Assembly: GCA_934130175.1 (NCBI GenBank)
Contig: CAKOXP010000008.1
Coordinates: forward strand, 181-64,180
Origin: an uncultured Bacilli bacterium
Lineage (GTDB): Bacteria > Bacillota_I > Bacilli_A > RF39 > UBA660
Reading direction: 5' to 3'
DNA: 64,000 bases
Positions 1 through 59,785 of this stretch are shown one piece after another. The notes beneath the pieces were generated by a model. The model did not search any database and was not told the DNA's origin. It saw nothing but the letters and a program-made list of their open reading frames with translations. Made by a program: the position numbers and the translations under genes. How positions within the stretch are numbered: position 1 is the stretch's first letter; each line of letters starts with the position of its first letter.

Positions 1-897
1 TAAGTTTATATCCATATTTTTATTAAGCATTGCTTTAGCAATATTTTGTTTTTCAGCTAGGCTTCCTTGCTCTAACCCTTGTTCCAACCCTTGTTCCAAC
101 CCTTGTTCTAGACCTTGTTCTAAACCTTGAGCCATTCCTTGTTCTATTCCTTTTTCCAATCCTTCAGCTAATCCTTCGGCTAACCCTTTTTCAATTGCTT
201 CTCTTCTTAAGGAATTTTCTATTTTTCGGTTATCCTCTTCTGCACTCATAAATTCTCTAAAATCTGGATCTTGATTTACTTCTTCTAATGTTTTCATATA
301 CTTATCAACACTCCTATCCTGAGATAGTTCTTCTAAAGTTTTTAATTCTTCTTGATTTAAATCTAACATTATTAAGTATTTATATTTCTCTATCTCATTT
401 CTAGACTTAGAATACCATATATCTTTTATCTTATCCATATTTATATCATATATTATTAAATTTTTGATATACTCATTTCCTTCTTCATCTCTTACTTTAT
501 AAATCCTTACTAACTCTTCTATACTTAAAGAATAACTTAAGTTAATTTGAATTACTAAAGTATCTTCATTATATTCATCTCCTTTCTTTACTTCATGGGA
601 ATATGTATCAAAGATGAATGAGGCATTTCTCGGATGAAGATAATTCGGTTTTTCTGCGTTTACTTCTACTTGAATTTTTCCTATATTGGTTTGTAAAAAT
701 AAATCAAAATGTTTTCTTCTAACATGAATGTTATCAACATTTCTTTCTAGATTTAAAAACTTAATATCTTCTATCTTTACATCTAGAATTGATTCTAATA
801 ATTTAGTTAGAATATCTTTACTTTCCTCTTTCATGAACACCTCCTTAAAGGCTCGATCATTTCTACAGGTATAAAATTTACTGACTGTTTCAGACAT
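1..897 (-). CDS. Rpn/YhgA-family PD-(D/E)XK recombination-promoting nuclease / putative transposase (3' end runs off the window)
   Basis: Absent from the ORF track because it is open at the window edge. Manual translation from ATG 897 (SD AAAGGA 9 nt upstream) gives MSETVSKFYTCRNDRAFKEVFMKEESKDILTKLLESIL... It shows the NDxxFKxxF N-terminus, an FDLFLQ...VEVNAE nuclease-like core and C-terminal (G-L-E-Q)n repeats followed by IAKAMLNKNMD, as in this family. Confidence 0.6.
   Translation of the reverse strand, partial: MSETVSKFYTCRNDRAFKEVFMKEESKDILTKLLESILDVKIEDIKFLNLERNVDNIHVRRKHFDLFLQTNIGKIQVEVNAEKPNYLHPRNASFIFDTYSHEVKKGDEYNEDTLVIQINLSYSLSIEELVRIYKVRDEEGNEYIKNLIIYDINMDKIKDIWYSKSRNEIEKYKYLIMLDLNQEELKTLEELSQDRSVDKYMKTLEEVNQDPDFREFMSAEEDNRKIENSLRREAIEKGLAEGLAEGLEKGIEQGMAQGLEQGLEQGLEQGLEQGLEQGSLAEKQNIAKAMLNKNMDINL
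64..183 (-). repeat. About 10 tandem 12-nt units (ccttgttcNaaN) encoding the (E/A)(Q/E)GL repeat of the Rpn-like protein
   Basis: The period-12 repeat is directly visible: ccttgttccaac ccttgttccaac ccttgttctaga ccttgttctaaa ... Confidence 0.8.
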
Positions 898-2389: not shown

Positions 2390-3421
2390 TTAATACGAAA
2401 TATTTGTTTTTGCAACTTCTATAACTGGACGAACACCTCTTTTGCCATAAAATAGCTCACCAGTTTCATCAGAGTTCCCATCTCCTGTTGAATCAACGTA
2501 GAAAGCATAAATTCCACGAAATTCAGTAAAGAGTAACATAGCCATGTTTGTTTTATACATATCTAGTTTAGAAGAATGTGCATTTTCTAACCAATATCCA
2601 TATGCATCATTTTTATTGTTTGAACTATATTGAGTACTTTCCATATAATAACTATATTGTTTTAAAATACCTTTTTGAAATGTACCATAATTTGAAATTG
2701 ATTTTTTTAAATCTTCAATAGCTAATAATCTTGCAGCATACCCATTATAAGAAAAAGTTGTTGGTAACGTTCCAGATGATGCTATATTAGTACCAATTTC
2801 ATTTGTTATCGTTCGAGATATATTTTTTAAATTCACATTCTTCCATTGCTCTACAGTTGGTAATTGTTTAATAGCCGTTACTGGTCCATTATTATTACTA
2901 CTACTTTCATCATAAGCAATTCCTACTGTACTTGTAGGATTTGCACCATCTACGTTACTATAATAAATCAACATTGCAGTATCATCATCTAAATCTCCTA
3001 GATAGTAAAATCTCTCTGTTGCTTCATTATATACTCCATCTCCATTTACATCACAGTCAAATGCATCTCCATTTGTTAATGTTCCCTTTGTTCCAAGACT
3101 TCCATAGGTTATAGCATCACCAAGTGAATAACCATCTGCTAAACAATAACCAGAGGTATCAGTATTTTCACATTTTTCTGTATGAAGACTTGTCGCACGC
3201 TTACACAATACTGGTTTACAATAAGAACCTTTTGGACATTCTTTTTTAGCTTCTTCTATCTTCTTTGTTGCTTTAGTACTTATTTTATCTAAAGCATCTT
3301 GAACATTTGTTGCCCCTAAATTGTCCGTATCTACATAATTTATACTTGTTGCCTGTATAATTGTCGATGCATATACACTAGTTCCGAGTAGTAGTAAACT
3401 AACTACCCCCCCCCAGTACAA
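2390..3421 (-). CDS. Secreted protein with an NVQDALD N-module and a Cys-rich/GVRPVIEV C-module; native 5' end (ATG 3464) is out of frame at a G9 tract
   Basis: The track ORF starts at a TTG. Upstream, SD GGAAGGTG-5nt-ATG(3464) opens MKIIKLIMKNNNYKFVLGGGS*, which stops at 3399-3401. G8 or G11 would fuse it to ...VVSLLLLGTSVYASTIIQ (a good signal peptide). The C-terminal 270 aa are paralogous to 53749..55143 and 58197..59591. Confidence 0.75.
   Translation of the reverse strand: MYWGGVVSLLLLGTSVYASTIIQATSINYVDTDNLGATNVQDALDKISTKATKKIEEAKKECPKGSYCKPVLCKRATSLHTEKCENTDTSGYCLADGYSLGDAITYGSLGTKGTLTNGDAFDCDVNGDGVYNEATERFYYLGDLDDDTAMLIYYSNVDGANPTSTVGIAYDESSSNNNGPVTAIKQLPTVEQWKNVNLKNISRTITNEIGTNIASSGTLPTTFSYNGYAARLLAIEDLKKSISNYGTFQKGILKQYSYYMESTQYSSNNKNDAYGYWLENAHSSKLDMYKTNMAMLLFTEFRGIYAFYVDSTGDGNSDETGELFYGKRGVRPVIEVAKTNISY
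3406..3414 (-). repeat. Homopolymeric G9 (C9 on the plus strand) in the 5' coding region
   Basis: Counted base by base. It is one of only two 9-nt G/C runs noticed in this AT-rich window. Confidence 0.95.
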
Positions 3422-3605: not shown

Positions 3606-5093
3606 ATGTACTTATTTAAAAATGCTTTTAAAAATATTACAAGAAGTAAGGGAAAAAATATTTTGATTGGAATTATTATTACTGTAGTAACAACATGTAC
3701 TTGTATTTCACTAGCAATAAATAAAGCTGCTTCTAACTTAGTTAATAGTTATAAAACAAAGAATCCATTAGAAGTTAGTTTCAATCTAGATATGTCAAAT
3801 TTAAGAAGCGCAACTGATAGTGAAAAAGAAAATTTTCAGTCACTAACGGTTGATAATATCAAATCCTATGGTGATAGTAATCTTGTAAAGGATTATTACT
3901 ATACCTTAGAGACAAGCATAAATAGTAATGATGTTACAGCTATTGAAGGTAATAAAAAACCAAATGCAGATAATGACAATAACAATGAAATGAAAGATGA
4001 TAATCATAAAAAATTTGATAACTCAAATATGGGTAATTTTAGATTAACAGCTTATTCTAACTTTGCTTACTTAGATGATTTTACAACTGGTAATAAAAAA
4101 ATCATTGAAGGTAAAATGATTACTGGTGATAGTGATAGTAGTGAAATAGTTATTTCTAAAGACTTAAAAGATGAAAATAATTTAGAACTTAATCAAGAAA
4201 TAACCTTTACAAATCCAAGTGATGATGAAAAAAGTTATACTTTTAAAATTGTAGGAATTTATGAAAATGAAGCTAGTTCTTCCACATCTAATTTCATGGA
4301 TATGAATGTTTTAAATAGTGCTAACCAAATATATGCCAATCTAAATAGTGTTCAAAAAGTTTTAGATGATAATAGTAGTAATGATGAAAATAAGCTTGTA
4401 AGAAATAATGGTTTAACTGCTAAATTCTATCTAAATAAAAATAGCGATTTAAAAGAGTTTGAAAAAGAAGTTAGAAAAAAAGGATTAAGCAGTTATTATG
4501 AAGTTAGTACCAATGAAAATGAAATTTTAGAAACATTAAAACCTATTCAAAATATCTCAACATTCTCAATTAATTTCTTAATAGTTATCATAATTATTGG
4601 TATCGTAGTTTTAACTATTATTAATTTCTTAAATATTAGAGATAGAAAATATGAAATTGGTGTATTACGTGCTATTGGAATGAGTAAATTTAAAGTTACA
4701 CTCCAATTAGTATTAGAAACTTTCTTTGTAGCTTTCGCATCACTAATTATTGGTACTGCAGTTGGAATAATTTCTAGTCAACCTGTTACTAACTACATGC
4801 TTAAAAATGAAATAAACTCTTATAAAGAGGAAGTTGAAAATACTACTAATAATTTTAAAGATAATAATTTCCAGAGACCTAGCGAAAGTATGAAAGATGA
4901 TAATATAAAAAAAGGAAAACCTGGAGTTAATAGAAATATAGATTATGTAGATAGTTTGAAGGTTCATATTGATATCTTAACTATTATAGAATTATTTGGT
5001 GTATGTATCTTGTTAACTGCTACTAGTGTTATCACAGTATCCTTAATTATAAATAAATATAGTCCAAATAAAATACTACAAAATAGATTATAG
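3606..5093 (+). CDS. ABC transporter permease, MacB/FtsX type (1 TM, large extracytoplasmic domain, 3 TM)
   Basis: The track ORF starts at 3567, but AGGAG lies 9 nt before ATG 3606 (MYLFKNAFKNITRSKGKNILIGIII). FtsX-type C-terminal TM triplet, adjacent to an ATPase gene. Confidence 0.8.
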   Translation: MYLFKNAFKNITRSKGKNILIGIIITVVTTCTCISLAINKAASNLVNSYKTKNPLEVSFNLDMSNLRSATDSEKENFQSLTVDNIKSYGDSNLVKDYYYTLETSINSNDVTAIEGNKKPNADNDNNNEMKDDNHKKFDNSNMGNFRLTAYSNFAYLDDFTTGNKKIIEGKMITGDSDSSEIVISKDLKDENNLELNQEITFTNPSDDEKSYTFKIVGIYENEASSSTSNFMDMNVLNSANQIYANLNSVQKVLDDNSSNDENKLVRNNGLTAKFYLNKNSDLKEFEKEVRKKGLSSYYEVSTNENEILETLKPIQNISTFSINFLIVIIIIGIVVLTIINFLNIRDRKYEIGVLRAIGMSKFKVTLQLVLETFFVAFASLIIGTAVGIISSQPVTNYMLKNEINSYKEEVENTTNNFKDNNFQRPSESMKDDNIKKGKPGVNRNIDYVDSLKVHIDILTIIELFGVCILLTATSVITVSLIINKYSPNKILQNRL

Positions 5094-14413: not shown

Positions 14414-14487
14414 AAAAACACCAATCTTTCAATTCTTATTATCAAGCTAATTATAGCATAGTATTGTAAGATTTTTTCTAGTTTTTT

Positions 14488-14518
14488 CTTGTTTAATTTA
14501 TCGAACATGTGTTATATT
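14488..14518 (+). promoter_or_regulatory. Unit 1 promoter with overlapping LexA (Cheo-box-like) operator CGAACATGTGTTAT (14502..14515)
   Basis: TTGTTT -35, 17-18 nt spacer, TTATAT/TATATT -10. The 14-mer matches the Firmicute consensus CGAACATATGTTCG at 11 of 14 positions and overlaps the -10. Confidence 0.55.
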
Positions 14519-14583
14519 TAACTTGGAACATTTAGTTGTTGAGTGTCTACCTCTAATCTTTATAGAGAGGAGGTTATTGATAT

Positions 14584-14667
14584 ATGGGAAAGAAAGATTT
14601 TTTAATTACTATCTTACTCACTATTATCATATTATTAATAGCTCTACTCTTCATAACATTGAAGTAG
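14584..14667 (+). CDS. 27-aa hydrophobic peptide MGKKDFLITILLTIIILLIALLFITLK (type I toxin-like)
   Basis: SD AGAGGAGG 8-9 nt upstream. The ORF length is conserved in all three units despite 4 substitutions. Single TM flanked by Lys. Confidence 0.6.
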   Translation: MGKKDFLITILLTIIILLIALLFITLK

Positions 14668-14676
14668 TATCACCTA

Positions 14677-14766
14677 TAAATAAAAACGGCACTCATCTCT
14701 TTCAAAGATAAGTGCCTCTCAAACAAATTTGGGTAGACATTCTACTTGTCAAACTGAATGTTCCCC
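14677..14766 (-). ncRNA. Candidate antisense RNA, unit 1 (3' end defined by a minus-strand terminator at 14677..14716)
   Basis: Minus strand reads GGCACTTATCT-ttgaaag-AGATGAGTGCC followed by gtttttattta. A possible TAAAAT -10 lies at 14773..14778, so the 5' end is uncertain. Confidence 0.3.
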
Positions 14767-14836
14767 TTTTTTATTTTATGCAAGAATACTTGCTACATAC
14801 ATAATAACATATTCTTTTTATTTTTTCTAGTTTTTT

Positions 14837-14867
14837 CTTGTTTAATTTATCGAACATGTGTTATATT
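14837..14867 (+). promoter_or_regulatory. Unit 2 promoter with LexA-box-like operator (14851..14864)
   Basis: -35 TTGTTT at 14838..14843, -10 at 14861..14867, CGAACATGTGTTAT overlapping it. Confidence 0.55.
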
Positions 14868-14932
14868 TGACTTGGAACATTTAGTTGTTGAGTGTCTACC
14901 TCTAATCTTTATAGAGAGGAGGTCTTTGATAT

Positions 14933-15016
14933 ATGGGAAAGAAAGATTTTTTAATCTTTATCTTACTTATTATTATCATTTTACTTATAAGCCTACTCTT
15001 CATTATCTTGAAGTAG
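14933..15016 (+). CDS. 27-aa hydrophobic peptide MGKKDFLIFILLIIIILLISLLFIILK (type I toxin-like)
   Basis: SD AGAGGAGG. Nucleotide-identical ORF in unit 3. Confidence 0.6.
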   Translation: MGKKDFLIFILLIIIILLISLLFIILK

Positions 15017-15024
15017 TAAATCCT

Positions 15025-15116
15025 ATAAATAAAAATGACACTCATCCGCAAAGATAAGTGTCTATCAAACCAATTTAGGTAGACATTCAACTAAGCAAAA
15101 AAACTGAATGTTCCCT
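15025..15116 (-). ncRNA. Candidate antisense RNA, unit 2 (terminator 15025..15062)
   Basis: Minus strand reads GACACTTATC-tttgcg-GATGAGTGTC followed by atttttattta. It overlaps the 3' UTR and terminator of the peptide mRNA. Confidence 0.3.
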
Positions 15117-15187
15117 TTTTTTATTTTATGCAAGAATACTTGCTACATACATGATAACATACTCTTTCTATTTTTTCTAGTTTTTTT

Positions 15188-15218
15188 CTTGTTTATTTTA
15201 TCGAACATGTGTTATATT
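15188..15218 (+). promoter_or_regulatory. Unit 3 promoter with LexA-box-like operator (15202..15215)
   Basis: Same architecture as units 1 and 2. Confidence 0.55.
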
Positions 15219-15283
15219 TGACTTGGAACATTTAGTTGTTGAGTGTCTACCTCTAATCTAGAAAGAGAGGAGGTCTTTGATAT

Positions 15284-15367
15284 ATGGGAAAGAAAGATTT
15301 TTTAATCTTTATCTTACTTATTATTATCATTTTACTTATAAGCCTACTCTTCATTATCTTGAAGTAG
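15284..15367 (+). CDS. 27-aa hydrophobic peptide, identical to the unit 2 peptide
   Basis: SD AGAGGAGG; ATG 15284, TAG 15365-15367. Confidence 0.6.
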   Translation: MGKKDFLIFILLIIIILLISLLFIILK

Positions 15368-15375
15368 TAAATCCT

Positions 15376-15465
15376 ATAAATAAAAATGACACTCATCCGC
15401 AAAGATAAGTGTCAAATCCTAACATTTAGGTAGACATTCAACTTTGCAAAACTGAATGCTTTCCT
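15376..15465 (-). ncRNA. Candidate antisense RNA, unit 3 (terminator 15376..15413)
   Basis: Same hairpin and T-run as unit 2. Confidence 0.3.
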
Positions 15466-15545
15466 TTTTTTATTTTATGCAAGAATACTTGCTACATACA
15501 TAGTATCATAATATTAATTTTTTTTCAATATATGCTTTCTTAAGA

Positions 15546-17914: not shown

Positions 17915-18457
17915 TCAAATAGCATATGATATTGTTCCTATTACTTTGGCACTTGTTATCTTGGTACCAGTTAGCTCTCTTAACATAACATCACCATTTG
18001 GTTTAATTGTCAAGAATGCGGTATTACTAACACTACTTTCTTGCCAAACAATTCCATCAACCTGTTGTCTTGGTCTGTAATCAGTTGGTATATTAAATAC
18101 AACATTTGTAGTTGGTGATTTTACGTAAACCCCAATATTTATAATGACTGTACTAGATGTTTTTGCATAATAATTATTATGCAGAGAATCATTTATTAAA
18201 GTATAACCACTATTAAAATTTGAAACTATAGTCTTTTTTGTTTCTAACTTGTCTTCAATACTTGAAAGCCTAGAATTTACTTTACCACAAGTTCCATCAA
18301 TAGCTGCTTGAACGTTAGCAGCACCTAAGGATGAATTATCTGAATAACCAACTTTACTGGCACTAATTGCATAAGTTGTTGCAGCATACGTACAGCCTAT
18401 AGAAATAATACCAGTTATTAGTGTAGTAATTATAATTATCATAATTGTTTTCTTCAT
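17915..18457 (-). CDS. Small secreted protein, NVQAAIDG N-module with a unique C-terminal domain (paralog of 32339..32878)
   Basis: SD AGGTGGTG then ATG 18457. Signal peptide ...SIGCTYA, then ATTYAISASKVGYSDNSSLGAANVQAAIDGTCGKV. Confidence 0.7.
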   Translation of the reverse strand: MKKTIMIIIITTLITGIISIGCTYAATTYAISASKVGYSDNSSLGAANVQAAIDGTCGKVNSRLSSIEDKLETKKTIVSNFNSGYTLINDSLHNNYYAKTSSTVIINIGVYVKSPTTNVVFNIPTDYRPRQQVDGIVWQESSVSNTAFLTIKPNGDVMLRELTGTKITSAKVIGTISYAI

Positions 18458-18490
18458 CTTAGACACCACCTATTATACTATTCTAAGATT

Positions 18491-27212: not shown

Positions 27213-27240
27213 ATGCTGATATTAAGTCAGCGTTTTTTTA
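27213..27240. terminator. Bidirectional terminator between lexA and the convergent gene
   Basis: A-run, GCTGA-tattaag-TCAGC, then T7. Confidence 0.7.
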
Positions 27241-28461
27241 TGGCATTGTGTATGAAAATCCAAATACGTATGTTGAACCTGCATATATATGAGTAGTGTA
27301 AGTTTTTCCTCTTTCGTTATTATGATTTGAAGCATATATTCTTCCAAACTTATAACTACCATATCTATTTGAATAATCTGTAGCACTATACAATTTTAAA
27401 TCATCTTGACCATTGGCATTCGACCAAGTTGGAAAACTTGTTATATCAGATCTTCCAAATACAGCAACCTCTACATCGCCAGGACCAAATTCATAATATC
27501 TGTAAACGACTCCTGATATTGGAAATTCATCAATTTTATCCTTATAACTAACTAGATTACCACCTTGATTATTTAATATTGGATAACCAGTACGCGTAGC
27601 TTTGATTGTATTGTTAATCAAATAAGTATAACTATTATTTCTATTTAAAACAGCATAAAAACCAGAATTAGAAGTTATTTGTATAGTCATATTCTCGATA
27701 TTAGCTTTTGCTGAATCATCTGTTCCTAAAGTACTATTATTAACAAAACCATATCCCGTTGATTCTATGGTTCCACCTTCTGTTTTTATTCTTCCACCTT
27801 CATCATTATATAGTGCAGTCCCGTCTGTTCCTTCTTTTGTCAATTTTATGTTAGCTTTTTTGATATTTAAAGACCCCTTATTTCTGATTGTCCATCCTAT
27901 AGTGTTAGAAAAATTACCATTTTCAATGGTACATCTTCCATCACTATCATTAAATAATGAATTACTACTACTACCAGAGTAAGTATATGTACCATCTGTT
28001 ATAGTAAGCTCACCATTATTATAAATTGTAGGTTCAGAACCATTGCAATCAATACTGCCGTTGCTTATCTTGACTTTTGAACCAGATGCAATCGAAATAC
28101 ATCCATTAATTTTCTTACCACTAAGATTAATTTCTGCTATATTCTTACCAATATTTATTGTATTAGTTTCTGTTATATCACTTTGTACAATGATTTTAGA
28201 ACCTTCAGGAGCATCTGCTACAGCATCACCTATTGATTCATAGTGTCTTTTTGTTGAATAAGGAGTTTGAACTGTAACAGGAGTTGTTATATTTTTTTCT
28301 AGTTCATCAACTACAGTTTGTGTAAATTCTTTACTATTTTTACGATTAAAAGCCATTATACTTATAATCATTCCCATAACCAAAACGATTACTATAAGTA
28401 ATCCATAAAGCATTGTAGAAACCGCAAATCCCTTATTATTCATTTTTTTCATTATTGTCAC
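27238..28461 (-). CDS. Surface protein: pilin-like N-terminus, beta-helix-like middle, C-terminal GBS Bsp-like repeat
   Basis: The probable start is ATG 28452 (MKKMNNKGFAVSTMLYGLLIV...). The middle is rich in short N/G/T strands. The C-terminus FPTWSNANGQDDLKLYSAT...GSYKF...ASNHNNERGKTYTTHIYAG matches the Bsp-like repeat pattern as I remember it. Confidence 0.55.
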   Translation of the reverse strand: MTIMKKMNNKGFAVSTMLYGLLIVIVLVMGMIISIMAFNRKNSKEFTQTVVDELEKNITTPVTVQTPYSTKRHYESIGDAVADAPEGSKIIVQSDITETNTINIGKNIAEINLSGKKINGCISIASGSKVKISNGSIDCNGSEPTIYNNGELTITDGTYTYSGSSSNSLFNDSDGRCTIENGNFSNTIGWTIRNKGSLNIKKANIKLTKEGTDGTALYNDEGGRIKTEGGTIESTGYGFVNNSTLGTDDSAKANIENMTIQITSNSGFYAVLNRNNSYTYLINNTIKATRTGYPILNNQGGNLVSYKDKIDEFPISGVVYRYYEFGPGDVEVAVFGRSDITSFPTWSNANGQDDLKLYSATDYSNRYGSYKFGRIYASNHNNERGKTYTTHIYAGSTYVFGFSYTMP

Positions 28462-32338: not shown

Positions 32339-32878
32339 TTACCTTGCATACAATCTAATAATTTCAAAATGATTTTGATTTACATTTGATGATTTTGACG
32401 TTGTTCCTACCACAATGCTTTTTTTTGTTATTGAAATAGCACCATCCCAGTAATAACCATAGTTACTACTATAGGAATAAAGTTTACTACTAAACTTTCC
32501 AGTTGATGTAGGTGGAATTTGATAACTGTTAGCAGAATAGGCCCAAAAGTTAGAAACATAGATTATTGGAACAATTTCTGTATATTCTGACAAATCAATA
32601 TTATAAGTAAGTGAGTAGCCGTTGCTGGTATCTTTAGTTGGTGTTGGTAGAGTTATTTCAATCAAATTCTTGTTAAGCTTATTTGCTAAAACAGTACTTA
32701 CCTTACTACAAGTTCCATCGATTGCTGCTTGAACGTTATCTGCTCCTAAACTGGAATTGTCTGTATAACCAATATTTGAAGCATTAATTGCATATGTTGT
32801 TGCAGCATATGATCCACTTATTGAAATTACACAGGTAATTGTCGCTATTATAAGTGTTATTCTTAAACTCTTTTTCAT
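32339..32878 (-). CDS. Small secreted protein, NVQAAIDG N-module with a unique C-terminal domain (paralog of 17915..18457)
   Basis: SD GGTAGGTG then ATG 32878. Signal peptide ...SISGSYA, then ATTYAINASNIGYTDNSSLGADNVQAAIDGTCSKV. Confidence 0.7.
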   Translation of the reverse strand: MKKSLRITLIIATITCVISISGSYAATTYAINASNIGYTDNSSLGADNVQAAIDGTCSKVSTVLANKLNKNLIEITLPTPTKDTSNGYSLTYNIDLSEYTEIVPIIYVSNFWAYSANSYQIPPTSTGKFSSKLYSYSSNYGYYWDGAISITKKSIVVGTTSKSSNVNQNHFEIIRLYAR

Positions 32879-32912
32879 CTTAGATATCACCTACCATACT
32901 ATATCTAAGATT

Positions 32913-38224: not shown

Positions 38225-38818
38225 TTAATCTTCTAATTGTTGATCTTCTTGAATTGCTTCTACTTTAATAACTCCATGAAAGTGTTGATTCATTATTTCA
38301 TTAGTAGCACTATCTTTTATCCAAAGTTTTAATGAATATGAATTCTTCTCTTCTGAACTAATACTACCAATATCTAATATTCCTGATGTATCTGATAAGT
38401 TTCCTTTTATAGAAGGTTCATTGTTTTTCTGAAATGAATATCTTATATTTGACCAATCTAATTGTTTTGATGAACAACCATCTTTAGTATATGTTTCAGT
38501 ATCATTAACTAACATTAAACGATAATTAGCACCAACTGTACCAGAATTTCTTAAAGTAAATGTGTATGGCTCATATGTCAATCCTTTATTATCAGAAACT
38601 GGAATTGCAGTTGTCAAATCAATGGCATTTTTTTCTGAATTATCAAGTGTCAAAATCAAAGTAGCAGTATCAATTGAATTTACCTTTTTACCTTCATAAA
38701 TCCTAACCCAGACTGCATAGCTTACTGCAAATACACAGATAATAATACTTAAAATTAATACACATAAACCCAATCTATTTACTTTTTTACTTGGATTTTT
38801 TATTTGTTTTTGCTTCAT
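38225..38818 (-). CDS. Stand-alone TasA/camelysin-like (SipW-type signal peptide) secreted protein
   Basis: AVSYAVWV...ATLILTLDN...YTFTLRNSG...SYSLKLWIKD...VIKVEAIQ aligns with the N-modules of 53749..55143 and 58197..59591. It also recalls TasA (GTWAAF...GTLDL...FSFEATQ). Confidence 0.55.
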   Translation of the reverse strand: MKQKQIKNPSKKVNRLGLCVLILSIIICVFAVSYAVWVRIYEGKKVNSIDTATLILTLDNSEKNAIDLTTAIPVSDNKGLTYEPYTFTLRNSGTVGANYRLMLVNDTETYTKDGCSSKQLDWSNIRYSFQKNNEPSIKGNLSDTSGILDIGSISSEEKNSYSLKLWIKDSATNEIMNQHFHGVIKVEAIQEDQQLED

Positions 38819-42356: not shown

Positions 42357-42591
42357 ATATATCCTCCTTACAAAAAAAATAACTATAATCTAAGGACGAA
42401 TTATCGCGGTACCACCTTAGTTTATAGTTATTTATTACTTACTATACACTTATATTCTTTTAACGCAAGAATTACGCTTACTATTAATAAGGACTCCTAA
42501 GACGAATTCGTATAATTATATTATCTGTTTCCACCAACCACAGACTCTCTAAAAATAATCATTATATTACTACTTCTTAATCAACATCGAT
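42357..42591 (-). promoter_or_regulatory. T-box leader (Phe) with terminator/antiterminator
   Basis: Minus strand has an extended -10 TGaTATAAT (42598..42606). Stem I-like elements are CGATGTTGA, AGAGAG and GGTGGAAAC, and a GAA-UUC-G specifier candidate lies at 42504..42509. The T-box motif is AAGGTGGTACCGCG (42405..42418). The terminator is CTATAAACTAAGG...CCTTAGATTATAG followed by T8 (42371..42427). Confidence 0.85.
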
Positions 42592-42632
42592 AGCTGTATT
42601 ATATCACAAAAAGTACAAATTTACTAGTGTTT

Positions 42633-53748: not shown

Positions 53749-55143
53749 CTAATAATCAATATCAGTTTTAGCAACTTCTATTACTGGACGAACACCAAAA
53801 GAATAAGTGCTGGTAACATGATTTAACTCTAAACGACGATAATCAGCATCAATGGTCAAAACTGAAGAAAAATATAGAGAACCATGTGTTTCTAACCATT
53901 CACCTTTTGTCATTAAATCACCTGATGAATATTTTGTATTTTCCATTAGATATTTACATTTAGTACTCACTTCTCCCAATCCTCCATTATTTATTATAAC
54001 ATCACATCCTGCACTCATTTCTTGACCCGTTAATAATCGTGCTGCATAACCTTCATAACTAAATCCTGATTTTCTAACTATGCCTTCAGAATCTGTTATA
54101 TCTCTTATATTGCTTTTTAATCTTACATTTTTCCATTGATCTATTGTTGGTAATTGTTTTATTGCTGTTACTGGTCCATCAATATAATCTCTTGAATCAT
54201 AATTCTGAGCATTTGAATCATACGGATATACTGTTGAATTTGAAGGTTTTCCCTCGCTTACGTTATTATAATAGATTAACACTGCTGTTTTATCATCCGT
54301 TGTTGTTCCATTTATCATATCTGATACATAATAAAATCTTTCTGTTTCAGCATCATATATACTATCACCATTAACATCACAATCAAAAGCATCACCTGAT
54401 GCGAGTATTCCACTCTTTCCTAAATTACCATATGTTATTGTTGTAGTTTTCATACTTCCACTTGCTGTATAGCCATCTGCACCACAAAAGTGATACTCAT
54501 TTGTTTGGCTACATGTTTCTGTATGAAGTGTTGTTGCTCTTTTACATATTGCTGTTTTTGTTGGTGTTACTGTTTGAGTAGCTTCTAAACTAAGTTGAGC
54601 ATTAAATATTTTTCCCATTACTTCGTTTTCTGTATTATTATCTCCTGCTTTTGAGTCTATCCAAATTCTTAAACTATACTTAATAGTTTTTCCTTTTTCA
54701 ATTGTTCCTGAGTCTATTACTCTATCTGTTAATATTTTTGATTTTGATGCTGTTGCTTCTTCTCCATCTTTTAATAAAATATATCTTACTTTAGAGTCAG
54801 CTAATCTATCTTCATCTGCTATTGTTACATCTTCATTATTATCATTTGTATAAATATCTAGATCTTTTAATGATAAAGTATAACTACTTGTACTACTTTT
54901 ATTTGTTAATGTAAATGTATATTCTTTTGTAGTCATTCCTTGTCTATAACTTCTTGGTACTTCTTTTGTTAATTTTATTCCCTCACTTGTTGTATCATCT
55001 AATGTTAATTCTAAGTTTCCTGCTGTTATCTTGTTAATTATCTCTGATTTTTTAGTTATATTTAACCACGCATATGTTGTTCCTATTATTACTACTAGTG
55101 TTAGCACTAGTGCAACTACTAATATTTTTTTATTATTTTTCAT
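53749..55143 (-). CDS. Secreted two-module protein: TasA/SipW-type N-module plus Cys-rich DVNGD / GVRPVIEV C-module
   Basis: IIGTTYAWLNITKKSEIINKITAGNLELTL...FNAQLSLEATQ, then CKRATTLHTETC...GDAFDCDVNGDSIYD...GPVTAIKQLPT...GYAARLLT...GVRPVIEVAKTDIDY. Confidence 0.7.
   Translation of the reverse strand: MKNNKKILVVALVLTLVVIIGTTYAWLNITKKSEIINKITAGNLELTLDDTTSEGIKLTKEVPRSYRQGMTTKEYTFTLTNKSSTSSYTLSLKDLDIYTNDNNEDVTIADEDRLADSKVRYILLKDGEEATASKSKILTDRVIDSGTIEKGKTIKYSLRIWIDSKAGDNNTENEVMGKIFNAQLSLEATQTVTPTKTAICKRATTLHTETCSQTNEYHFCGADGYTASGSMKTTTITYGNLGKSGILASGDAFDCDVNGDSIYDAETERFYYVSDMINGTTTDDKTAVLIYYNNVSEGKPSNSTVYPYDSNAQNYDSRDYIDGPVTAIKQLPTIDQWKNVRLKSNIRDITDSEGIVRKSGFSYEGYAARLLTGQEMSAGCDVIINNGGLGEVSTKCKYLMENTKYSSGDLMTKGEWLETHGSLYFSSVLTIDADYRRLELNHVTSTYSFGVRPVIEVAKTDIDY
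54530..55143 (-). repeat. Direct repeat copy A (~610 bp, the N-module-coding part) matching 58978..59591
   Basis: Side-by-side reading shows roughly nine in ten identical positions (by eye, not computed). Confidence 0.8.
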
Positions 55144-55174
55144 TACTACTTCTCCTTAAAAATATTTTTATTTT

Positions 55175-56623
55175 TTACTTAGTCTTCCTATATATAAAAT
55201 GAAACTTCCAACTATTATCAATCAAAATAATATTAGTATCCTCATTTATTCCATAATATTTTTTAAACATTTCTAAATGATAGGCATTTTCTGGATTAAT
55301 ATTACATGGTGCAAAAGAAGGATATGCAACTATTTCTATATTTTTAGCTTTAGCATTTATTCCTTGCTTTATTCTCAGATAATTGTCATTATATTGTAAA
55401 TGAATACTTATATAAAAAGTAATATATAATATTATACCTACTACATTACTAGTAATTAAAAGATAATTTATAAGTTTACTTTTGTTTAAATATCTATCTA
55501 TTATTATTAAGTAACTAACACTCATAAATAAATATGTTGCAAAGGAAGTTCGATAGCCCCATGTTGGTGAAAGAAGCATTATTCCGTTTGAACATATTCC
55601 AATGAGAAAAAATAATACAGCTAAATCTTTATTGATGCTCTTACTATCTTTAATAACTAAAAGAAAACTGAAAATACTATATAACAAGAAATATATAATT
55701 GTAAAAATATTATTACTTGAAAATTGATCATTTAAAGTAAAAGTTATTACTGGTACTATAGAAAAAATTTCAAATAGATAGAAAAAAATCCTAACTATTT
55801 TATTTTTTATTTTATTTCTGGTAATTAGACAATTACCTATAAGCATTAATATAATTAGTAAGTAATTAATAAGATATGTATAATATATGAAATTTGGTAT
55901 ATTATACCCTATTTTCTTTATAAAACTTAGATTATTAAAGTATGTATTTTCAATACTATTTCTTAAAGTATTACCTGGTGATAAAAACATGATTATAAAA
56001 CTAATTATTGATATAAGCAAAAATATAATTAATTTCTTATTTATCTTTTTAGTTTCCAAGTAATCAAGGATTATAAATAAAATGTTAATTAATATTAAGA
56101 TAATAGCCATATGTTCAACAAACATTGGAATTATTATATTTAATATTATTAAAAAGATATTTTTTTTCATTGATGATAACTTATTTTTATAAAGTTCATT
56201 TAAATAATAAAGTAATAGTAAAATAACAAATAAATAGGTGATATTACCAGCTATCCAAACAACAACCTGTGAAAAGGTATACAAATTCATAAAAAGAAAT
56301 ATTAGTGGTACTGCCAGAAACATCGTTTTTTTATTTTTAAATTTGCATATGGTATTTATCATATACATTATTAATACAATAATTAAACTATTCAGAATAT
56401 TCCATAACCATTTATTATAAGTAAGTATGTTGATTAATAGTCTGCTTATGAATCTGCCTTCCCATGAAAAATACATTCCAACAGTATTTACTACTATATG
56501 TCTTATTCCTTGTTCTCCAACTAAATAATTGCCCCAATCATCCCCAGAAATAGGACTTAAAAACATAATTAATAGAAAAAAGGTAAAATATAATATATAT
56601 TCTTTTTTAATACACTCTTTCAT
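55175..56623 (-). CDS. Large polytopic membrane protein, GT-C-like glycosyltransferase candidate (DUF6056-like)
   Basis: The start is ATG 56623 (SD AGAGGA). More than 10 predicted TM helices, with an early extracytoplasmic loop SPISGDDWGNY (an acidic DD motif like GT-C enzymes). Adjacent to an LCP gene. Confidence 0.4.
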   Translation of the reverse strand: MKECIKKEYILYFTFFLLIMFLSPISGDDWGNYLVGEQGIRHIVVNTVGMYFSWEGRFISRLLINILTYNKWLWNILNSLIIVLIMYMINTICKFKNKKTMFLAVPLIFLFMNLYTFSQVVVWIAGNITYLFVILLLLYYLNELYKNKLSSMKKNIFLIILNIIIPMFVEHMAIILILINILFIILDYLETKKINKKLIIFLLISIISFIIMFLSPGNTLRNSIENTYFNNLSFIKKIGYNIPNFIYYTYLINYLLIILMLIGNCLITRNKIKNKIVRIFFYLFEIFSIVPVITFTLNDQFSSNNIFTIIYFLLYSIFSFLLVIKDSKSINKDLAVLFFLIGICSNGIMLLSPTWGYRTSFATYLFMSVSYLIIIDRYLNKSKLINYLLITSNVVGIILYITFYISIHLQYNDNYLRIKQGINAKAKNIEIVAYPSFAPCNINPENAYHLEMFKKYYGINEDTNIILIDNSWKFHFIYRKTK

Positions 56624-56681
56624 AAATATTCCTCTACCTTCATATAAAAATGATAACATAAAAAGAAAAGAAAAAGAAGTA

Positions 56682-58088
56682 TTATTTGTTATTTAATACC
56701 TCTTTTATCTTTTTGCTAACAGTATTTACTTGTTCCATATCAGGTATGGTAACACCTACTTCTTGAGTTCCTAAATGTCCCATTCCTTTTCCGTCTGTAC
56801 CATCTGGATATTGTTCAATTATTTCATAATCACTATAATTTTCTATTAATGATTTAAATAGATTAGTAACAGCTTTTTTATTCATATCAGTAGTATATAA
56901 ATTGCTATAACTATTTAAAATTTCTGTGTAATTAGATAAAGTAGATCCAGATAAAGTCTTTTTAGCTACACTAAGTAAAATTTTACGACAATTATTTATT
57001 CTTCCTCTTTCATTATTTTTTAGATTAAGTCTTTCTCTGGATATCGCAAGTATTTCCTTTCCATTATAGTTTTTGCATCCTTTAGATACATTCAATTTTG
57101 TACCAGTTTTGTCATCATATGTATTAGTTGTTAAAACATGTGTTGTTGTAAAGTCATAGTCAGAACAAAACTCTACTCCTCCTAAAGTGTCAACAACATT
57201 TACTAATGAATTAGTATTAATATTAAGTGTATAATCAATATCTATATCAAAGAGTTCTTCTAGTGCTTCTTTGCTAACATCACTATCAAGTGAACCCAAA
57301 CACATCAATGTATCTTTTATATTATAGGCTGGAACATCAATATAATATCCTCTTAAAACAGAAGTTAAAACTATTTGTTTGCTTTTAGTATTAACAGTAA
57401 CAAGCATATTAAAGTCTCGCATTATTCCAGTGAAATCAACACCATTTAAATAAATAGTATAACTATCTTTTACAGTATCATTTTTCTTTTCTTTATAACT
57501 AACACTAAATTCTTTAATTATTTTGTAATTATTACTATCATATAAAATAGATGAATTCATTAAATAATCATAATTAGATTTACTTATCAATAAATAATTA
57601 TTTGTATCATTATTAATAATATCTAAAACAGTACTTATACTATCAGTTGCGACTAATTCTCTATCTTTTAGTTTTTTTAATGCCAAATCTATACTTTTAG
57701 AATACTTATAATAAAAGATTTTATTATTTATTTTTTGAATATCATTAATAGGATTATTAATATTAGTTATAACTATATAATCAGTACTTACAACAGCATA
57801 ATCAGAAAATCCTTTATCTATAAATGTATTTGTTTTATCTAGATAATAAAACCCAAAAATATTAAAAGCATTAGTAATAATCAATATTATGATACCTAAT
57901 ACCAAGAAAAATTTATTTTTTAAATTAACAAATACTATACCTAATAAATTAATAATAACTTCAACCACAATAAATAATATAAGGTATTTATTACTAAGAA
58001 TATTTATTTTAATAACAGTAATCAATAAAAGTATAAATATAATTAAACTTATTATACTTAAAATGTTTCTCAATACACTTTTTTTCAA
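56682..58088 (-). CDS. LytR-CpsA-Psr (LCP) family phosphotransferase
   Basis: N-terminal TM helices, then RDFNMLVTVNTKSKQIVLTSVLRGYYIDVP...IDIDYTLNINTNSLVNVVDTLGGVEF. Confidence 0.7.
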   Translation of the reverse strand: MKKSVLRNILSIISLIIFILLLITVIKINILSNKYLILFIVVEVIINLLGIVFVNLKNKFFLVLGIIILIITNAFNIFGFYYLDKTNTFIDKGFSDYAVVSTDYIVITNINNPINDIQKINNKIFYYKYSKSIDLALKKLKDRELVATDSISTVLDIINNDTNNYLLISKSNYDYLMNSSILYDSNNYKIIKEFSVSYKEKKNDTVKDSYTIYLNGVDFTGIMRDFNMLVTVNTKSKQIVLTSVLRGYYIDVPAYNIKDTLMCLGSLDSDVSKEALEELFDIDIDYTLNINTNSLVNVVDTLGGVEFCSDYDFTTTHVLTTNTYDDKTGTKLNVSKGCKNYNGKEILAISRERLNLKNNERGRINNCRKILLSVAKKTLSGSTLSNYTEILNSYSNLYTTDMNKKAVTNLFKSLIENYSDYEIIEQYPDGTDGKGMGHLGTQEVGVTIPDMEQVNTVSKKIKEVLNNK

Positions 58089-58196
58089 TTCAAACCACCT
58101 CTAAATACGCTGCATATTATAGCATGTATTTAGATATTTGTAAAGAAAAACTAAGCAAACTAAAAATGAAAATCATTATGATTCTCATTTTTGGTT

Positions 58197-59591
58197 TTAA
58201 TATTCGATATTTACTTTAGCAACTTCTATTGCAGGACGGACGCCACGATAACTTGCACTATTTACATATACGTAATCAATATATCGATAATTACCGCGAA
58301 CAAGCCAAGCATAATTTGAGCGTGATGAATCCGGAGTTTCTAACAATCCTCCGTAAGTAGCTAAACTATCAGATGAATATTTTGTATTTTCCATTAAATA
58401 TTTACATTTACTACTTAGTTCACCTTTTATATAACTTCCTACTATAACATCACAACCAGTACTTACTTCTTGGGTAGTTAATAGTCTTGCTGCATATCCT
58501 TCATAACTAAAGGCTGTTGGAAGATCTCCCGCAGTTGTTGTATTTCCTCCATTCTCATTTGTTATAGCTCTTGTTGTATTTGTTAGGTTTACGTTACTCC
58601 ATTGCTCTGTTGTTGGTAATTGTTTTATTGCTGTTACTGGGCCATTATTGTTAGTTCCACTTTCATCATATGCATATGCTGTTGAATTAGATGCCACTCC
58701 TCCACTTACATTATTATAATAGATTAATACCGCTGTATTATTATCTGTTGTAACTCCATTTGTTACATCTGATACATAATAAAATCTTTCTGTTTCAGAA
58801 TCATATAATCCATCCCCATTAACATCACAATCAAATGCATCTCCACTTGTTAGAACTCCTTTTGTTCCCAGATTTCCATAGGTCATTGCATCATTTAAGG
58901 CATATCCATCCGCTTGACAATATCCTGTTGCATCTTCATTAGAACAAGTTTCTGTATGAAGTGTTGTTGCTCTTTTACATACTGCTGTTTTTGTTGGGGT
59001 TACTGTTTGAGTAGCTTCTAAACTTAGTTGTGCGTTAAATACTTTTCCCATTACTTCTTCTTCTGTATTATTATCTCCTGCTTTTGAATCTATCCAGATT
59101 CTTAGACTATAAGTAATTGTTTTTCCTTTTTCTATTGTTCCTGAGTCTATTACTCTATCTGTTAATATTTTTGATTTTGCTGCAGTTGCTTCTTCTCCAT
59201 CTTTTAATAAAATATATCTTACTTTAGAATCAGCTAATCTATCTGCATCTGTTATTGCTACTTCTTCATTATTATCATTTGTATAAGTATCTAGATCTTT
59301 TAATGATAAAGTATAACTACTTGTACTACTTTTATTTGTTAATGTAAATGTATACTCTTCTGTTTTTATTCCTTGTTGATAACTCATTGGGATTGCTTTT
59401 ATTAATTTTATTCCTTCACTTGTTGTATCATCTAATACTAATTCTAAGTTTCCTGCTGTTATTTTATTTACTATATCTGAATTCTTTGTTAGTCTTAACC
59501 ATGCATATGTTGTTCCTATTATTACTACTAGGATTAATACTATAGCTATTACTAAAAGTTTTGCATTTCCTATTTTTTTCTTTTCTTCCAT
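58197..59591 (-). CDS. Secreted two-module protein, paralog of 53749..55143
   Basis: Same N-module. The C-module CKRATTLHTETC...GDAFDCDVNGDGLYD...GVRPAIEVAKVNIEY is closer to that of 2390..3421. Confidence 0.7.
   Translation of the reverse strand: MEEKKKIGNAKLLVIAIVLILVVIIGTTYAWLRLTKNSDIVNKITAGNLELVLDDTTSEGIKLIKAIPMSYQQGIKTEEYTFTLTNKSSTSSYTLSLKDLDTYTNDNNEEVAITDADRLADSKVRYILLKDGEEATAAKSKILTDRVIDSGTIEKGKTITYSLRIWIDSKAGDNNTEEEVMGKVFNAQLSLEATQTVTPTKTAVCKRATTLHTETCSNEDATGYCQADGYALNDAMTYGNLGTKGVLTSGDAFDCDVNGDGLYDSETERFYYVSDVTNGVTTDNNTAVLIYYNNVSGGVASNSTAYAYDESGTNNNGPVTAIKQLPTTEQWSNVNLTNTTRAITNENGGNTTTAGDLPTAFSYEGYAARLLTTQEVSTGCDVIVGSYIKGELSSKCKYLMENTKYSSDSLATYGGLLETPDSSRSNYAWLVRGNYRYIDYVYVNSASYRGVRPAIEVAKVNIEY
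58978..59591 (-). repeat. Direct repeat copy B matching 54530..55143
   Basis: See copy A. The two copies are offset by 4448 bp. Confidence 0.8.
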
Positions 59592-59668
59592 ATTTTACAC
59601 TTCCCTCTAGTATTAGAATACACTAATAATTTTAAAATATCAATTAAAAATGACTTCTACAGTCCTCC

Positions 59669-59785
59669 TTATTTGTCTAAATTAATTTCATCTGCTATTT
59701 TAGAAATTTTCAAAGAGCAAAACATAAATAATGTTAATACTCCAATTGTTATAATACCTAAAGTTAATAATGCTGCCTTAATCAT
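59669..59785 (-). CDS. 38-aa single-TM peptide MIKAALLTLGIITIGVLTLFMFCSLKISKIADEINLDK
   Basis: Below the track cutoff. SD AGGAGA lies 6 nt before ATG 59785, with a TTGATT-16-TATAAT promoter (59812..59839, minus strand). Confidence 0.35.
   Translation of the reverse strand: MIKAALLTLGIITIGVLTLFMFCSLKISKIADEINLDK

Follow-up and report, generated by a model that had tools for sequence, protein, structure and literature searches.

We analyzed a 64,000-nucleotide stretch of DNA from an uncultured Bacilli bacterium of the RF39 lineage (GenBank assembly GCA_934130175.1, contig CAKOXP010000008.1, positions 181 to 64,180; hereafter the window), in which six genes encode secreted proteins made from three recurring modules: module B, a TasA-superfamily jelly-roll; module C, a cysteine-rich domain of DUF6273/C-type lectin (C-lec) identity; and module A, a leader and neck. 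We consider it fairly probable that these are surface proteins assembled from interchangeable parts, in which B-type subunits would form fibers by donor-strand exchange, module C would serve as a lectin head, and recombination at module boundaries would bring heads and carriers together in new combinations. In related metagenome-assembled genomes (MAGs), the hypervariable patch of module C is a bona fide variable repeat (VR) of a diversity-generating retroelement (DGR), with a template repeat (TR), a reverse transcriptase (RT), and adenine-specific changes. An original prediction made from the nucleotide sequence had described a domain-shuffled secreted family in the window, and overlooked both module C as a C-type-lectin-fold DGR target and module A with its phage-fiber-like heads.

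The six open reading frames (ORFs) were verified at their coordinates, all on the minus strand (Table 1). Two genes, BC1 and BC2, join module B to module C, one gene (B alone) encodes module B by itself, one (A+C) carries module C behind module A and, as had been predicted, module A heads two more small proteins. Translation and regular-expression searches recovered every quoted motif, and module C was placed after B in BC1 and BC2 and after A in A+C. The proposal that module B occurs both fused and alone stood in terms of homology, as B alone aligns with BC2 residues 13-195 at 31% identity (BLASTP, E 2e-20), but not in its literal form, since the quoted motifs are missing from B alone. BC1 and BC2 are 69% identical over their full length, module C of A+C is 53% identical to BC2 residues 201-464 (E 7e-91), and, on sequence criteria, the similarities among the six proteins are far above chance.

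Comparison of the proteins module by module indicates that recombination between modules is real. BC1 and BC2 share 85% identity in module B and 61% in module C, the latter being no closer than module C of BC2 is to that of A+C in the same module-wise comparison (59%), and their DNA identity of 84-97% over gene nucleotides 91-630 is followed by 54% in the next 90-nucleotide block, which spans the B/C junction. Across B+C proteins, the identities of modules B and C correlate poorly (r = 0.32), some pairs reaching 98% in B with only 57% in C, and others 24% in B with as much as 81% in C. From this decoupling we conclude that the modules recombine independently, and we reject whole-gene duplication without recombination; the module trees are not congruent, so that the check for simple whole-gene duplication proposed with the original prediction came out against duplication. 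In a neighbor-joining tree of 102 C modules, 18 Fitch changes separate the A+C and B+C architectures, as opposed to about 34 with random labels, so that the tree has some structure, but the architectures are not monophyletic; this tree is crude, and the conclusion of independent recombination does not rest on it. Syntenic positions in related genomes carry different members of the family: downstream of pheT lies B alone in the window and a type IV pilin fused to module C in locus L021, and upstream of addB lie module A with a tail-like head in the window, an 'E/D' N-module with module C in L052, and a 1,522-residue repeat protein with module C in L059.

The family to which these proteins belong is large. 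Searches with BC2 matched >2,500 proteins (90% clusters) and searches with A+C matched 1,890, and the family comprises 2,046 clusters at 50% identity (E<=1e-3). Among the best 120 matches of each search, the architectures are kept at full length down to ~55% identity for B+C and ~44% for A+C, the latter architecture being kept in about 100 homologues. The relatives come from MAGs of uncultured gut Bacilli from humans (including Hadza), goat, sheep, and rabbit, labeled 'Bacilli bacterium', 'uncultured Tenericutes', Clostridium sp. CAG:433, Mycoplasma sp. CAG:877, and Coprobacillus sp. CAG:605, labels that we take to denote RFN20/RF39-type lineages with reduced genomes.

Module B is a member of the TasA superfamily, as the original prediction had suggested, because BC1 and other family members match the TasA/camelysin family Peptidase_M73 and the predicted structure matches those of AbpA and TasA. 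BC1 reaches 23.0 bits against PF12389 (cut-off 22.5, residues 8-132), and four of the 14 members of a diverse module-B alignment match the same family (best E 5.9e-6). In a Foldseek search of the PDB with an AlphaFold2 (AF2) model of BC2, the first match was the archaeal bundling pilin AbpA (7ueg_A, E 1.1e-4, probability 1.0), and the TasA fiber (8aur_A, probability 0.95) and chaperone-usher pilins were also listed. Similarly, a module-B profile found a weak match to AbpX in the PDB (9sj2/9rhp, E about 0.9) on the conserved core '...P...YTFTLxNxG...', which is only suggestive. Nothing significant came from a single-sequence PDB search with BC2 or from PDB profile searches with three alignments (A+C, module B, and the 217-residue E family described below). 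The BC2 model (mean predicted local distance difference test score, pLDDT, 84.8) consists of a helix at residues 9-32, a low-confidence segment at 26-39, a beta domain at 43-195, and, beyond a short linker, module C at 201-464, which is modeled with very high confidence. AbpA, AbpX, and TasA form one superfamily whose subunits polymerize by N-terminal donor-strand complementation (PMC9245690, PMC9674648, bioRxiv 10.64898/2026.01.04.697558), and in TasA the donor strand comprises the first 11 mature residues (PMC9674648). In BC2, the conserved segment WLRLTKNSDIV that follows GTTYA is the candidate donor strand; the low confidence of this N-terminal segment in the monomer model is the sole hint of donor-strand complementation there.

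Module C is a domain of ~265 residues. Its alignment shows six invariant cysteines and an equally invariant GDAFDCDVNGDG-Y...TERFYY block, in line with a domain that lies outside the cell, is held by disulfide bonds, and has a loop of the Ca2+ type. Given the N-terminal signal sequences and these invariant cysteines, the proteins are not cytoplasmic, in agreement with their earlier description as secreted. The identity of module C is DUF6273/C-lec. Although the window proteins gave no match to Pfam DUF6273 (PF19789), 26 of 55 A+C homologues match this family over the last ~125 residues (best E 1.6e-5), and in the relative P0182 a canonical DUF6273 domain (36.3 bits vs a cut-off of 23.5) comes after module B. 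In BFVD, the top match of the BC2 model was to a gut-myovirus DUF6273 protein (E 3.1e-4, probability 1.0, 235 columns), with a tail-collar fiber protein also listed, so that the likeness to DUF6273 noted in the original prediction is borne out by the profile matches of homologues and by fold. The A+C model found weak, consistently C-type-lectin-like matches in the PDB (E 2-9), including the Legionella Lcl C-terminal domain and snake-venom C-type lectin-like domains. DUF6273 has been assigned to the C-lec fold of DGR targets, and phage DUF6273 domains belong to receptor-binding proteins (PMC10743442, PMC11792537). The DxDxNGDG stretch of module C had also been read as a dockerin/EF-hand-like calcium loop: the motif, DxDxNGDGxYD, is present and invariant and by pattern alone a plausible Ca2+ site, while a dockerin/EF-hand profile match is absent, with one of 55 homologues matching Dockerin_1 at E 0.057. 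This loop may bind Ca2+, and module C may bind glycans or cell surfaces.

The C-terminal end of module C contains a hypervariable stretch directly before the GVRP motif. In the B+C alignment, column entropy is 2.5-2.65 bits over BC2 residues 421-449 (~29 residues) vs 0.4-1.5 in most other blocks (block 381-390 reaches 2.2); within the stretch the framework residues W429 and R436 are retained, and entropy collapses at G450-V-R-P. Homologues ~83% identical to BC2 have a wholly different hypervariable patch, and in another relative, P0007, the patch is identical to that of BC2 and the differences lie elsewhere. We take this stretch to be the probable ligand-binding surface of module C.

To what extent such stretches are DGR variable repeats is evident from related loci, where a scan for RTs turned up enzymes of the DGR type in L038 and L060. 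L038 holds a complete cassette (Table 1), in which 14 of the 15 mismatches between TR and VR1 fall at TR adenines (Fisher p 1.5e-8), as do 15 of the 21 between TR and VR2 (p 4e-6), the second variable repeat lying in a gene for a type IV pilin fused to module C. A second DGR, in L008 (CAAGHO010000003, MAG HGM10839, 1-3400), adjoins an A+C gene; its TR (1202-1310) matches three VRs of its own MAG with strong adenine bias (p 5e-7 to 9e-8), including remote VRs on two further contigs (L009, L013), and also matches, again with adenine bias, B+C genes of two other MAGs (L001, p 6e-5; L005, p 2e-5). The RT frame of L008 is split into two ORFs (2223-2588, 2922-3356), which may reflect a pseudogene or an assembly error. 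In L060, a TR/VR repeat was not found within the 9.2 kb searched. The GC content of the variable stretch is >=0.5 in 19 of 69 module-C genes from the fetched loci, with a locus GC of ~24-25% where measured (L038, L008). MAG HGM10839 is among those with B+C genes most similar to BC2 (61% at L002). At L002 (CAAGHO010000042, 120-4757), this MAG has three tandem B+C genes, the third with a ~70-residue insertion inside module B; the variable stretches of L002 have no relation to the TR of the same MAG.

Module C is mostly C-terminal and sometimes present in several copies, and the proteins that contain it range in length from about 200 to 7,116 residues. In addition to modules A and B, its partners include the 'E/D' N-module, ALK/LTK-type glycine-rich domains, Listeria-Bacteroides repeats, and type IV pilins, the last demonstrated by N_methyl matches and KGFTLIELL N-termini. 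At 11 related loci, a SipW-like peptidase adjoins module-C fusion genes, most of them with a full operon in the order of a 217-residue secreted protein (E), a protein with multiple transmembrane (TM) segments and a C-terminal archaeal-type signal peptidase I (SPase I; 97.6 bits with TIGR02228 and 65 bits with the SipW model), a protein with DUF5305, and a ~510-residue fusion whose last ~260 residues are module C and whose N-domain, D, is homologous to E (hhalign probability 95.5%). The SPase I-DUF5305-module C operon lies at L062:4332-8795 and is also found in L040, L049, L050, L053, L054, L058, L060, and L061. This layout is that of the AbpX-type loci of the TasA superfamily, which encode a major subunit, a 10-TM SPase I, a DUF5305 accessory protein, and minor or tip subunits (bioRxiv 10.64898/2026.01.04.697558). 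In L011 and L052, B-alone genes have C-fusion genes in their vicinity, and the pairing of a free subunit with one that bears module C is seen in three forms: as B and B+C (window, L011, L052), as E and D+C, and in the type IV pilin fusions. The swappable binding domain of the original prediction is thus strongly supported, with the same module C on TasA-like, SipW-operon, type IV pilin, glycine-rich, and repeat-protein N-termini. In the literature searched, we came upon no account of a TasA-like domain joined to a DUF6273/C-lec domain, in keeping with the earlier view of B+C as an undescribed architecture.

From these data we envisage the following mechanism. A signal peptidase would cleave B-type proteins after TYA, and the freed N-terminal strand would insert into the jelly-roll of a neighboring subunit, as in TasA, AbpA, and AbpX; polymerization of module B is what its kinship with these subunits suggests. 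B alone could supply the bulk of the fiber, and BC1 and BC2 could act as 'modular pilins' with the lectin head on display, through which the cell would adhere to glycans or other cells. A-type proteins may display module C, or other heads, on a phage-fiber-like neck. Recombination between paralogues at the module boundaries yields different combinations of head and carrier.

A number of observations weigh against this reading. The window, as the original prediction had noted for the peptidase, contains no SipW-like peptidase gene (phmmer with a SipW-like domain from a related locus) and no DUF5305 gene, and the family genes are dispersed as singletons among housekeeping genes and not grouped into a pilus operon. 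In the retrieved loci, SipW and DUF5305 genes accompany the E/D N-module and not module B; hhalign gave a probability of 58% for module B vs E, partly driven by the signal peptide, and nothing for module B vs D. BC2 and B alone reach no Pfam or NCBIfam cut-off themselves, PF12389 included, BC1 scores 15.7 bits against the SipW-dependent signal peptide model TIGR04088 (cut-off 19), and, as the target-normalized Foldseek TM-scores to AbpA and TasA are 0.33-0.34, the likeness of module B to these subunits is only moderate. Furthermore, the three variable stretches of the window (GC 0.34-0.42) have no adenine-biased relation to the L008 TR and no DGR signature. Neither an RT-like ORF nor a template repeat lies in the 64-kb window, and each variable stretch occurs there only once. 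The A+C protein is found without change in 15 contigs, of which the four listed belong to four different ENA samples. Because of these AT-rich, unbiased stretches, the lack of RT and TR, the constancy of A+C across samples, and the patch that P0007 shares with BC2, the module-C heads of the window look static.

The main rival explanation, which we regard as rather unlikely, is that these proteins are surface lectins that do not polymerize, module B being a beta-sandwich stalk, anchored in the membrane by an uncleaved helix or released as monomers, and module C still being the binding head. It would account for the missing SipW and DUF5305 genes, the scattered singletons, and the modest likeness to filament subunits, and it draws on the AF2 model, in which residues 9-32 form one continuous helix that includes TYAWL. 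Set against it are the small residues at positions -1 and -3 (T-Y-A) and a c-region that aligns with the cleavage motif of TasA, the GTTYA/W of BC2 resembling the GTWA/AF of TasA. Moreover, the segment after TYA has low confidence, as expected of an unpaired donor strand; several genomes have B-alone paralogues as well as B+C fusions, with E and D+C repeating the pattern in SipW operons; and type IV pilins bear the same head.

A second alternative places the function of module C at the cell wall, as an anchor to wall or glycopolymer (like TapA or SLH/CWB2-type modules) that tethers TasA-like fibers and other passengers. The usual C-terminal position of module C after many unrelated passenger domains agrees with such a role, as does the position of BC1 and BC2 on either side of genes for a polytopic DUF6056 membrane protein and an LCP (LytR-CpsA-Psr) glycopolymer transferase; module-C genes in L003 and L031 likewise have an LCP gene as a neighbor. 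Bacterial AbpX loci also often encode wall anchors (bioRxiv 10.64898/2026.01.04.697558). However, an anchor of this kind would recognize a single, unchanging polymer of its own cell, whereas module C has a hypervariable patch that is rewritten by DGRs in relatives. Module C is also fused to type IV pilins, which present their additional C-terminal modules on the pilus (PMC8179133); in addition, phage DUF6273 domains belong to receptor-binding proteins (PMC10743442, PMC11792537). Since module C is hypervariable and present on type IV pilins, we consider the wall-anchor role improbable. A link between wall glycopolymer and the B+C adhesins, by way of the LCP and DUF6056 genes between BC1 and BC2, is possible.

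Module A is a Sec leader and neck that in relatives presents phage-fiber-like heads, module C being one option. The two small A proteins have only their first ~65 residues in common (56% identity in a 97-residue alignment ending there), after which they diverge fully, and their similarity to A+C is confined to the ~45-residue NVQ segment, so that module A is a short leader plus neck heading three different C-terminal domains in the window. In the AF2 model of A+C, the NVQ motif begins a 20-residue helix. Small A protein 1, over its mature length, matches the PHROG minor-tail families phrog_3639 (E 3.5e-8) and phrog_3285 (E 2.6e-5); neither small protein matches Pfam, and protein 2 has no family match at all. 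Most relatives that share module A carry Gp10_C, the C-terminal domain of the T4 baseplate protein Gp10, at 60-80 bits.

These phage-like heads, together with the occurrence of DUF6273 in gut phages, could be read as the remains of a prophage or tailocin, the proteins being decayed phage receptor-binding proteins without a cellular role. We find this very improbable: the genes nearby are of the dcw, fts, tRNA-synthetase, and ribosomal kinds, with no phage genes among them; signal peptides are present in the proteins; and the architectures are kept across many MAGs at syntenic housekeeping positions. A prophage origin is also unsupported because, in a tblastn search, none of 50,697 GenBank phage records matched either small A protein 1 or A+C.

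Table 1. Positions of the genes, modules, and variable stretches discussed in the text (window coordinates unless another contig is named).
Feature	Position	Strand	Basis and remarks
A+C	2390-3421	-	ORF, 343 aa; Sec signal peptide, NVQ neck (helix 40-60), module C from C73
A+C hypervariable stretch before GVRP	2438-2584	-	Longer than in B+C proteins; low model confidence
Small module-A protein 1	17915-18469	-	184 aa; NVQ neck and head resembling phage minor tail protein
Small module-A protein 2	32339-32890	-	183 aa; NVQ neck and head differing from that of protein 1
B alone	38225-38818	-	ORF, 197 aa; candidate major fiber subunit; 31% to BC2 module B
BC1 (module B + module C)	53749-55143	-	ORF, 464 aa; second B+C gene
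BC1 hypervariable stretch before GVRP	53797-53883	-	Same alignment columns as in BC2; GC 0.34
DUF6056 membrane protein	55175-56659	-	Between BC1 and BC2; Pfam/NCBIfam match
LCP glycopolymer transferase	56682-58088	-	Between BC1 and BC2; Pfam/NCBIfam match
BC2 (module B + module C)	58197-59591	-	ORF, 464 aa; public protein P0001 identical
BC2 module C, aa 205-464	58200-58979	-	Cys-rich, C-type-lectin-fold, DUF6273-related; pLDDT above 90
BC2 hypervariable stretch, aa 421-449	58245-58331	-	Directly before GVRP; GC 0.40; homologous to VR2 of L038; equivalent to DGR variable repeat
DVNGD core of the invariant GDAFDCDVNGDG-Y loop	58812-58826	-	Putative Ca2+ site; motif search; columns D254-E268 invariant
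BC2 module B, aa 31-200	58992-59501	-	TasA-superfamily jelly-roll; Foldseek, and Pfam matches in family
BC2 signal peptide, aa 1-30	59502-59591	-	Ends ...IIGTTYA/WL, putative SipW/TasA type; predicted cleavage site; Y29, A30, W31 conserved
L038 DGR cassette	URBY01000001, 1-3960		'uncultured Tenericutes' UMGS855; complete: VR1, TR, accessory ORFs, RT, target gene
L038 VR1	212-318 of L038		3' end of one module-C gene
L038 template repeat	534-640 of L038		107 nt
L038 two small accessory ORFs	820-1559 of L038		
L038 reverse transcriptase	1543-2667 of L038		
L038 type IV pilin + module C gene	2815-3960 of L038		VR2 at 3822-3928, directly before GVRPAIEV

The window has a GC content of 27.5%, carries nearly all of its genes on the minus strand, and is otherwise of housekeeping content, including rsmH-ftsL-PBP2B, murG-murB-ftsQ-ftsA-ftsZ-ftsK, pheST, and ribosomal and translation genes. 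A scan for promoters and terminators around BC1-BC2 found sites no more numerous than in shuffled sequence, no regulatory RNA or phase-variation features were found in the window, and the 64 kb contain no tRNA genes. The sole Rfam match of the window is a T-box leader upstream of pheS (42389-42593, minus strand, 113.9 bits), as is expected before pheS in a Firmicute. In the 420-nucleotide intergenic region upstream of BC2, a short ORF was noticed by eye (59660-59780, minus strand), which encodes a hydrophobic peptide of ~38 residues (MIKAALLTLGIITIGVLTLFMFCSLKISKIADEINLDK) and is preceded by a Shine-Dalgarno-like GGAG. Approximately 1.1 kb without a convincing ORF (14414-15545) lies between the genes for a zinc-ribbon membrane protein and an addB-like protein and has no Rfam or tRNA match, and an ORF at 1-897 (minus strand) runs past the start of the window; its N-terminus (MSETVSKFYTCRNDRAFKEVF...) by eye resembles those of Rpn/PD-(D/E)XK recombination-promoting nucleases or transposase-like proteins. 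A 407-residue protein (27238-28461, minus strand) has a degenerate pilin-like N-terminus (KGFAVSTMLYGLL, without Glu5), a repetitive middle, and a C-terminal GBS_Bsp-like repeat (E 4e-10); we rejected it as a type IV pilin relative, its N-terminal similarity to the true type IV pilin fusions being weak (E 0.04).

The system combines three known themes, namely TasA-superfamily fibers, modular pilins, and C-lec heads that can be diversified by DGRs. Like TasA/TapA of Bacillus subtilis, AbpA, and AbpX, it has a jelly-roll subunit behind a putative SipW-type signal peptide and a conserved N-terminal segment at the position of the TasA donor strand, and related MAGs have the AbpX type of locus, with subunit, multi-TM SPase I, DUF5305, and 'tip' protein. 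Unlike in these systems, the subunit domain and a lectin-fold head of ~265 residues make up a single chain, the window lacks the peptidase and accessory genes, the genes are dispersed, the sequence similarity is borderline, and assembly is here presumed from likeness. The 'modular pilin' concept is established for PilB and PilC of Streptococcus sanguinis (PMC8179133, PMC9934059), which similarly join a pilin module to a C-terminal adhesive or lectin module, and relatives of the window have true type IV pilin fusions to module C; in contrast, the fusions of the window use a TasA-like module, and the head fold is unlike the vWA module of PilB or the lectin module of PilC.

With DGR C-lec proteins (Bordetella phage Mtd, Treponema TvpA, and the DUF6273 'tentaclins' of gut phages), module C shares the C-lec/DUF6273 fold and a variable stretch at the C-terminal end of the domain, and the relatives L038 and L008 share TR, RT, and adenine-specific mutagenesis. 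DGRs also diversify the type V pilus tip adhesins of Bacteroides (bioRxiv 10.1101/2024.11.15.621889), where, as here, the head is borne by pilus subunits. The differences are that the host is a monoderm, low-GC member of the Bacilli, that the carriers are TasA-type proteins and type IV pilins and not type V pilins or phage tails, that module C has an extra N-terminal cysteine-rich part with the Ca-loop motif, and that the three module-C copies of the window are without a DGR and look static. The Legionella Lcl C-terminal domain (DUF1566) is the best solved-structure match to the C-terminal half of module C (8q4e_A) and likewise ends in a VR-type strand, but the match is not significant (E about 2) and there is no sequence-profile relationship.

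TasA-type fibers are known mainly as scaffolds of the biofilm matrix. If they carry grafted lectin heads here, they would be adhesive pili in abundant uncultured gut Bacilli. We propose, more tentatively than the assembly of these proteins from interchangeable modules, that reduced-genome gut Bacilli may plug one DGR-diversifiable lectin head into TasA-type fibers, AbpX-type subunits, type IV pili, and phage-fiber-like necks, with recombination reshuffling the combinations. If true, these would be the first TasA-superfamily fibers in monoderm bacteria with programmable, or formerly programmable, tip adhesins, and would make up a combinatorial toolkit for adhesion, a counterpart of the DGR-diversified type V pili of Bacteroides, extending the idea of a DGR-diversified pilus adhesin from these to monoderm bacteria. 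A head common to TasA-like subunits, type IV pilins, and phage-like necks, and hypermutated by DGRs in relatives, points to strong selection on binding targets, for which host mucus, food particles, and partner cells are candidates. The window offers concrete, expressible proteins for the discovery of these ligands.

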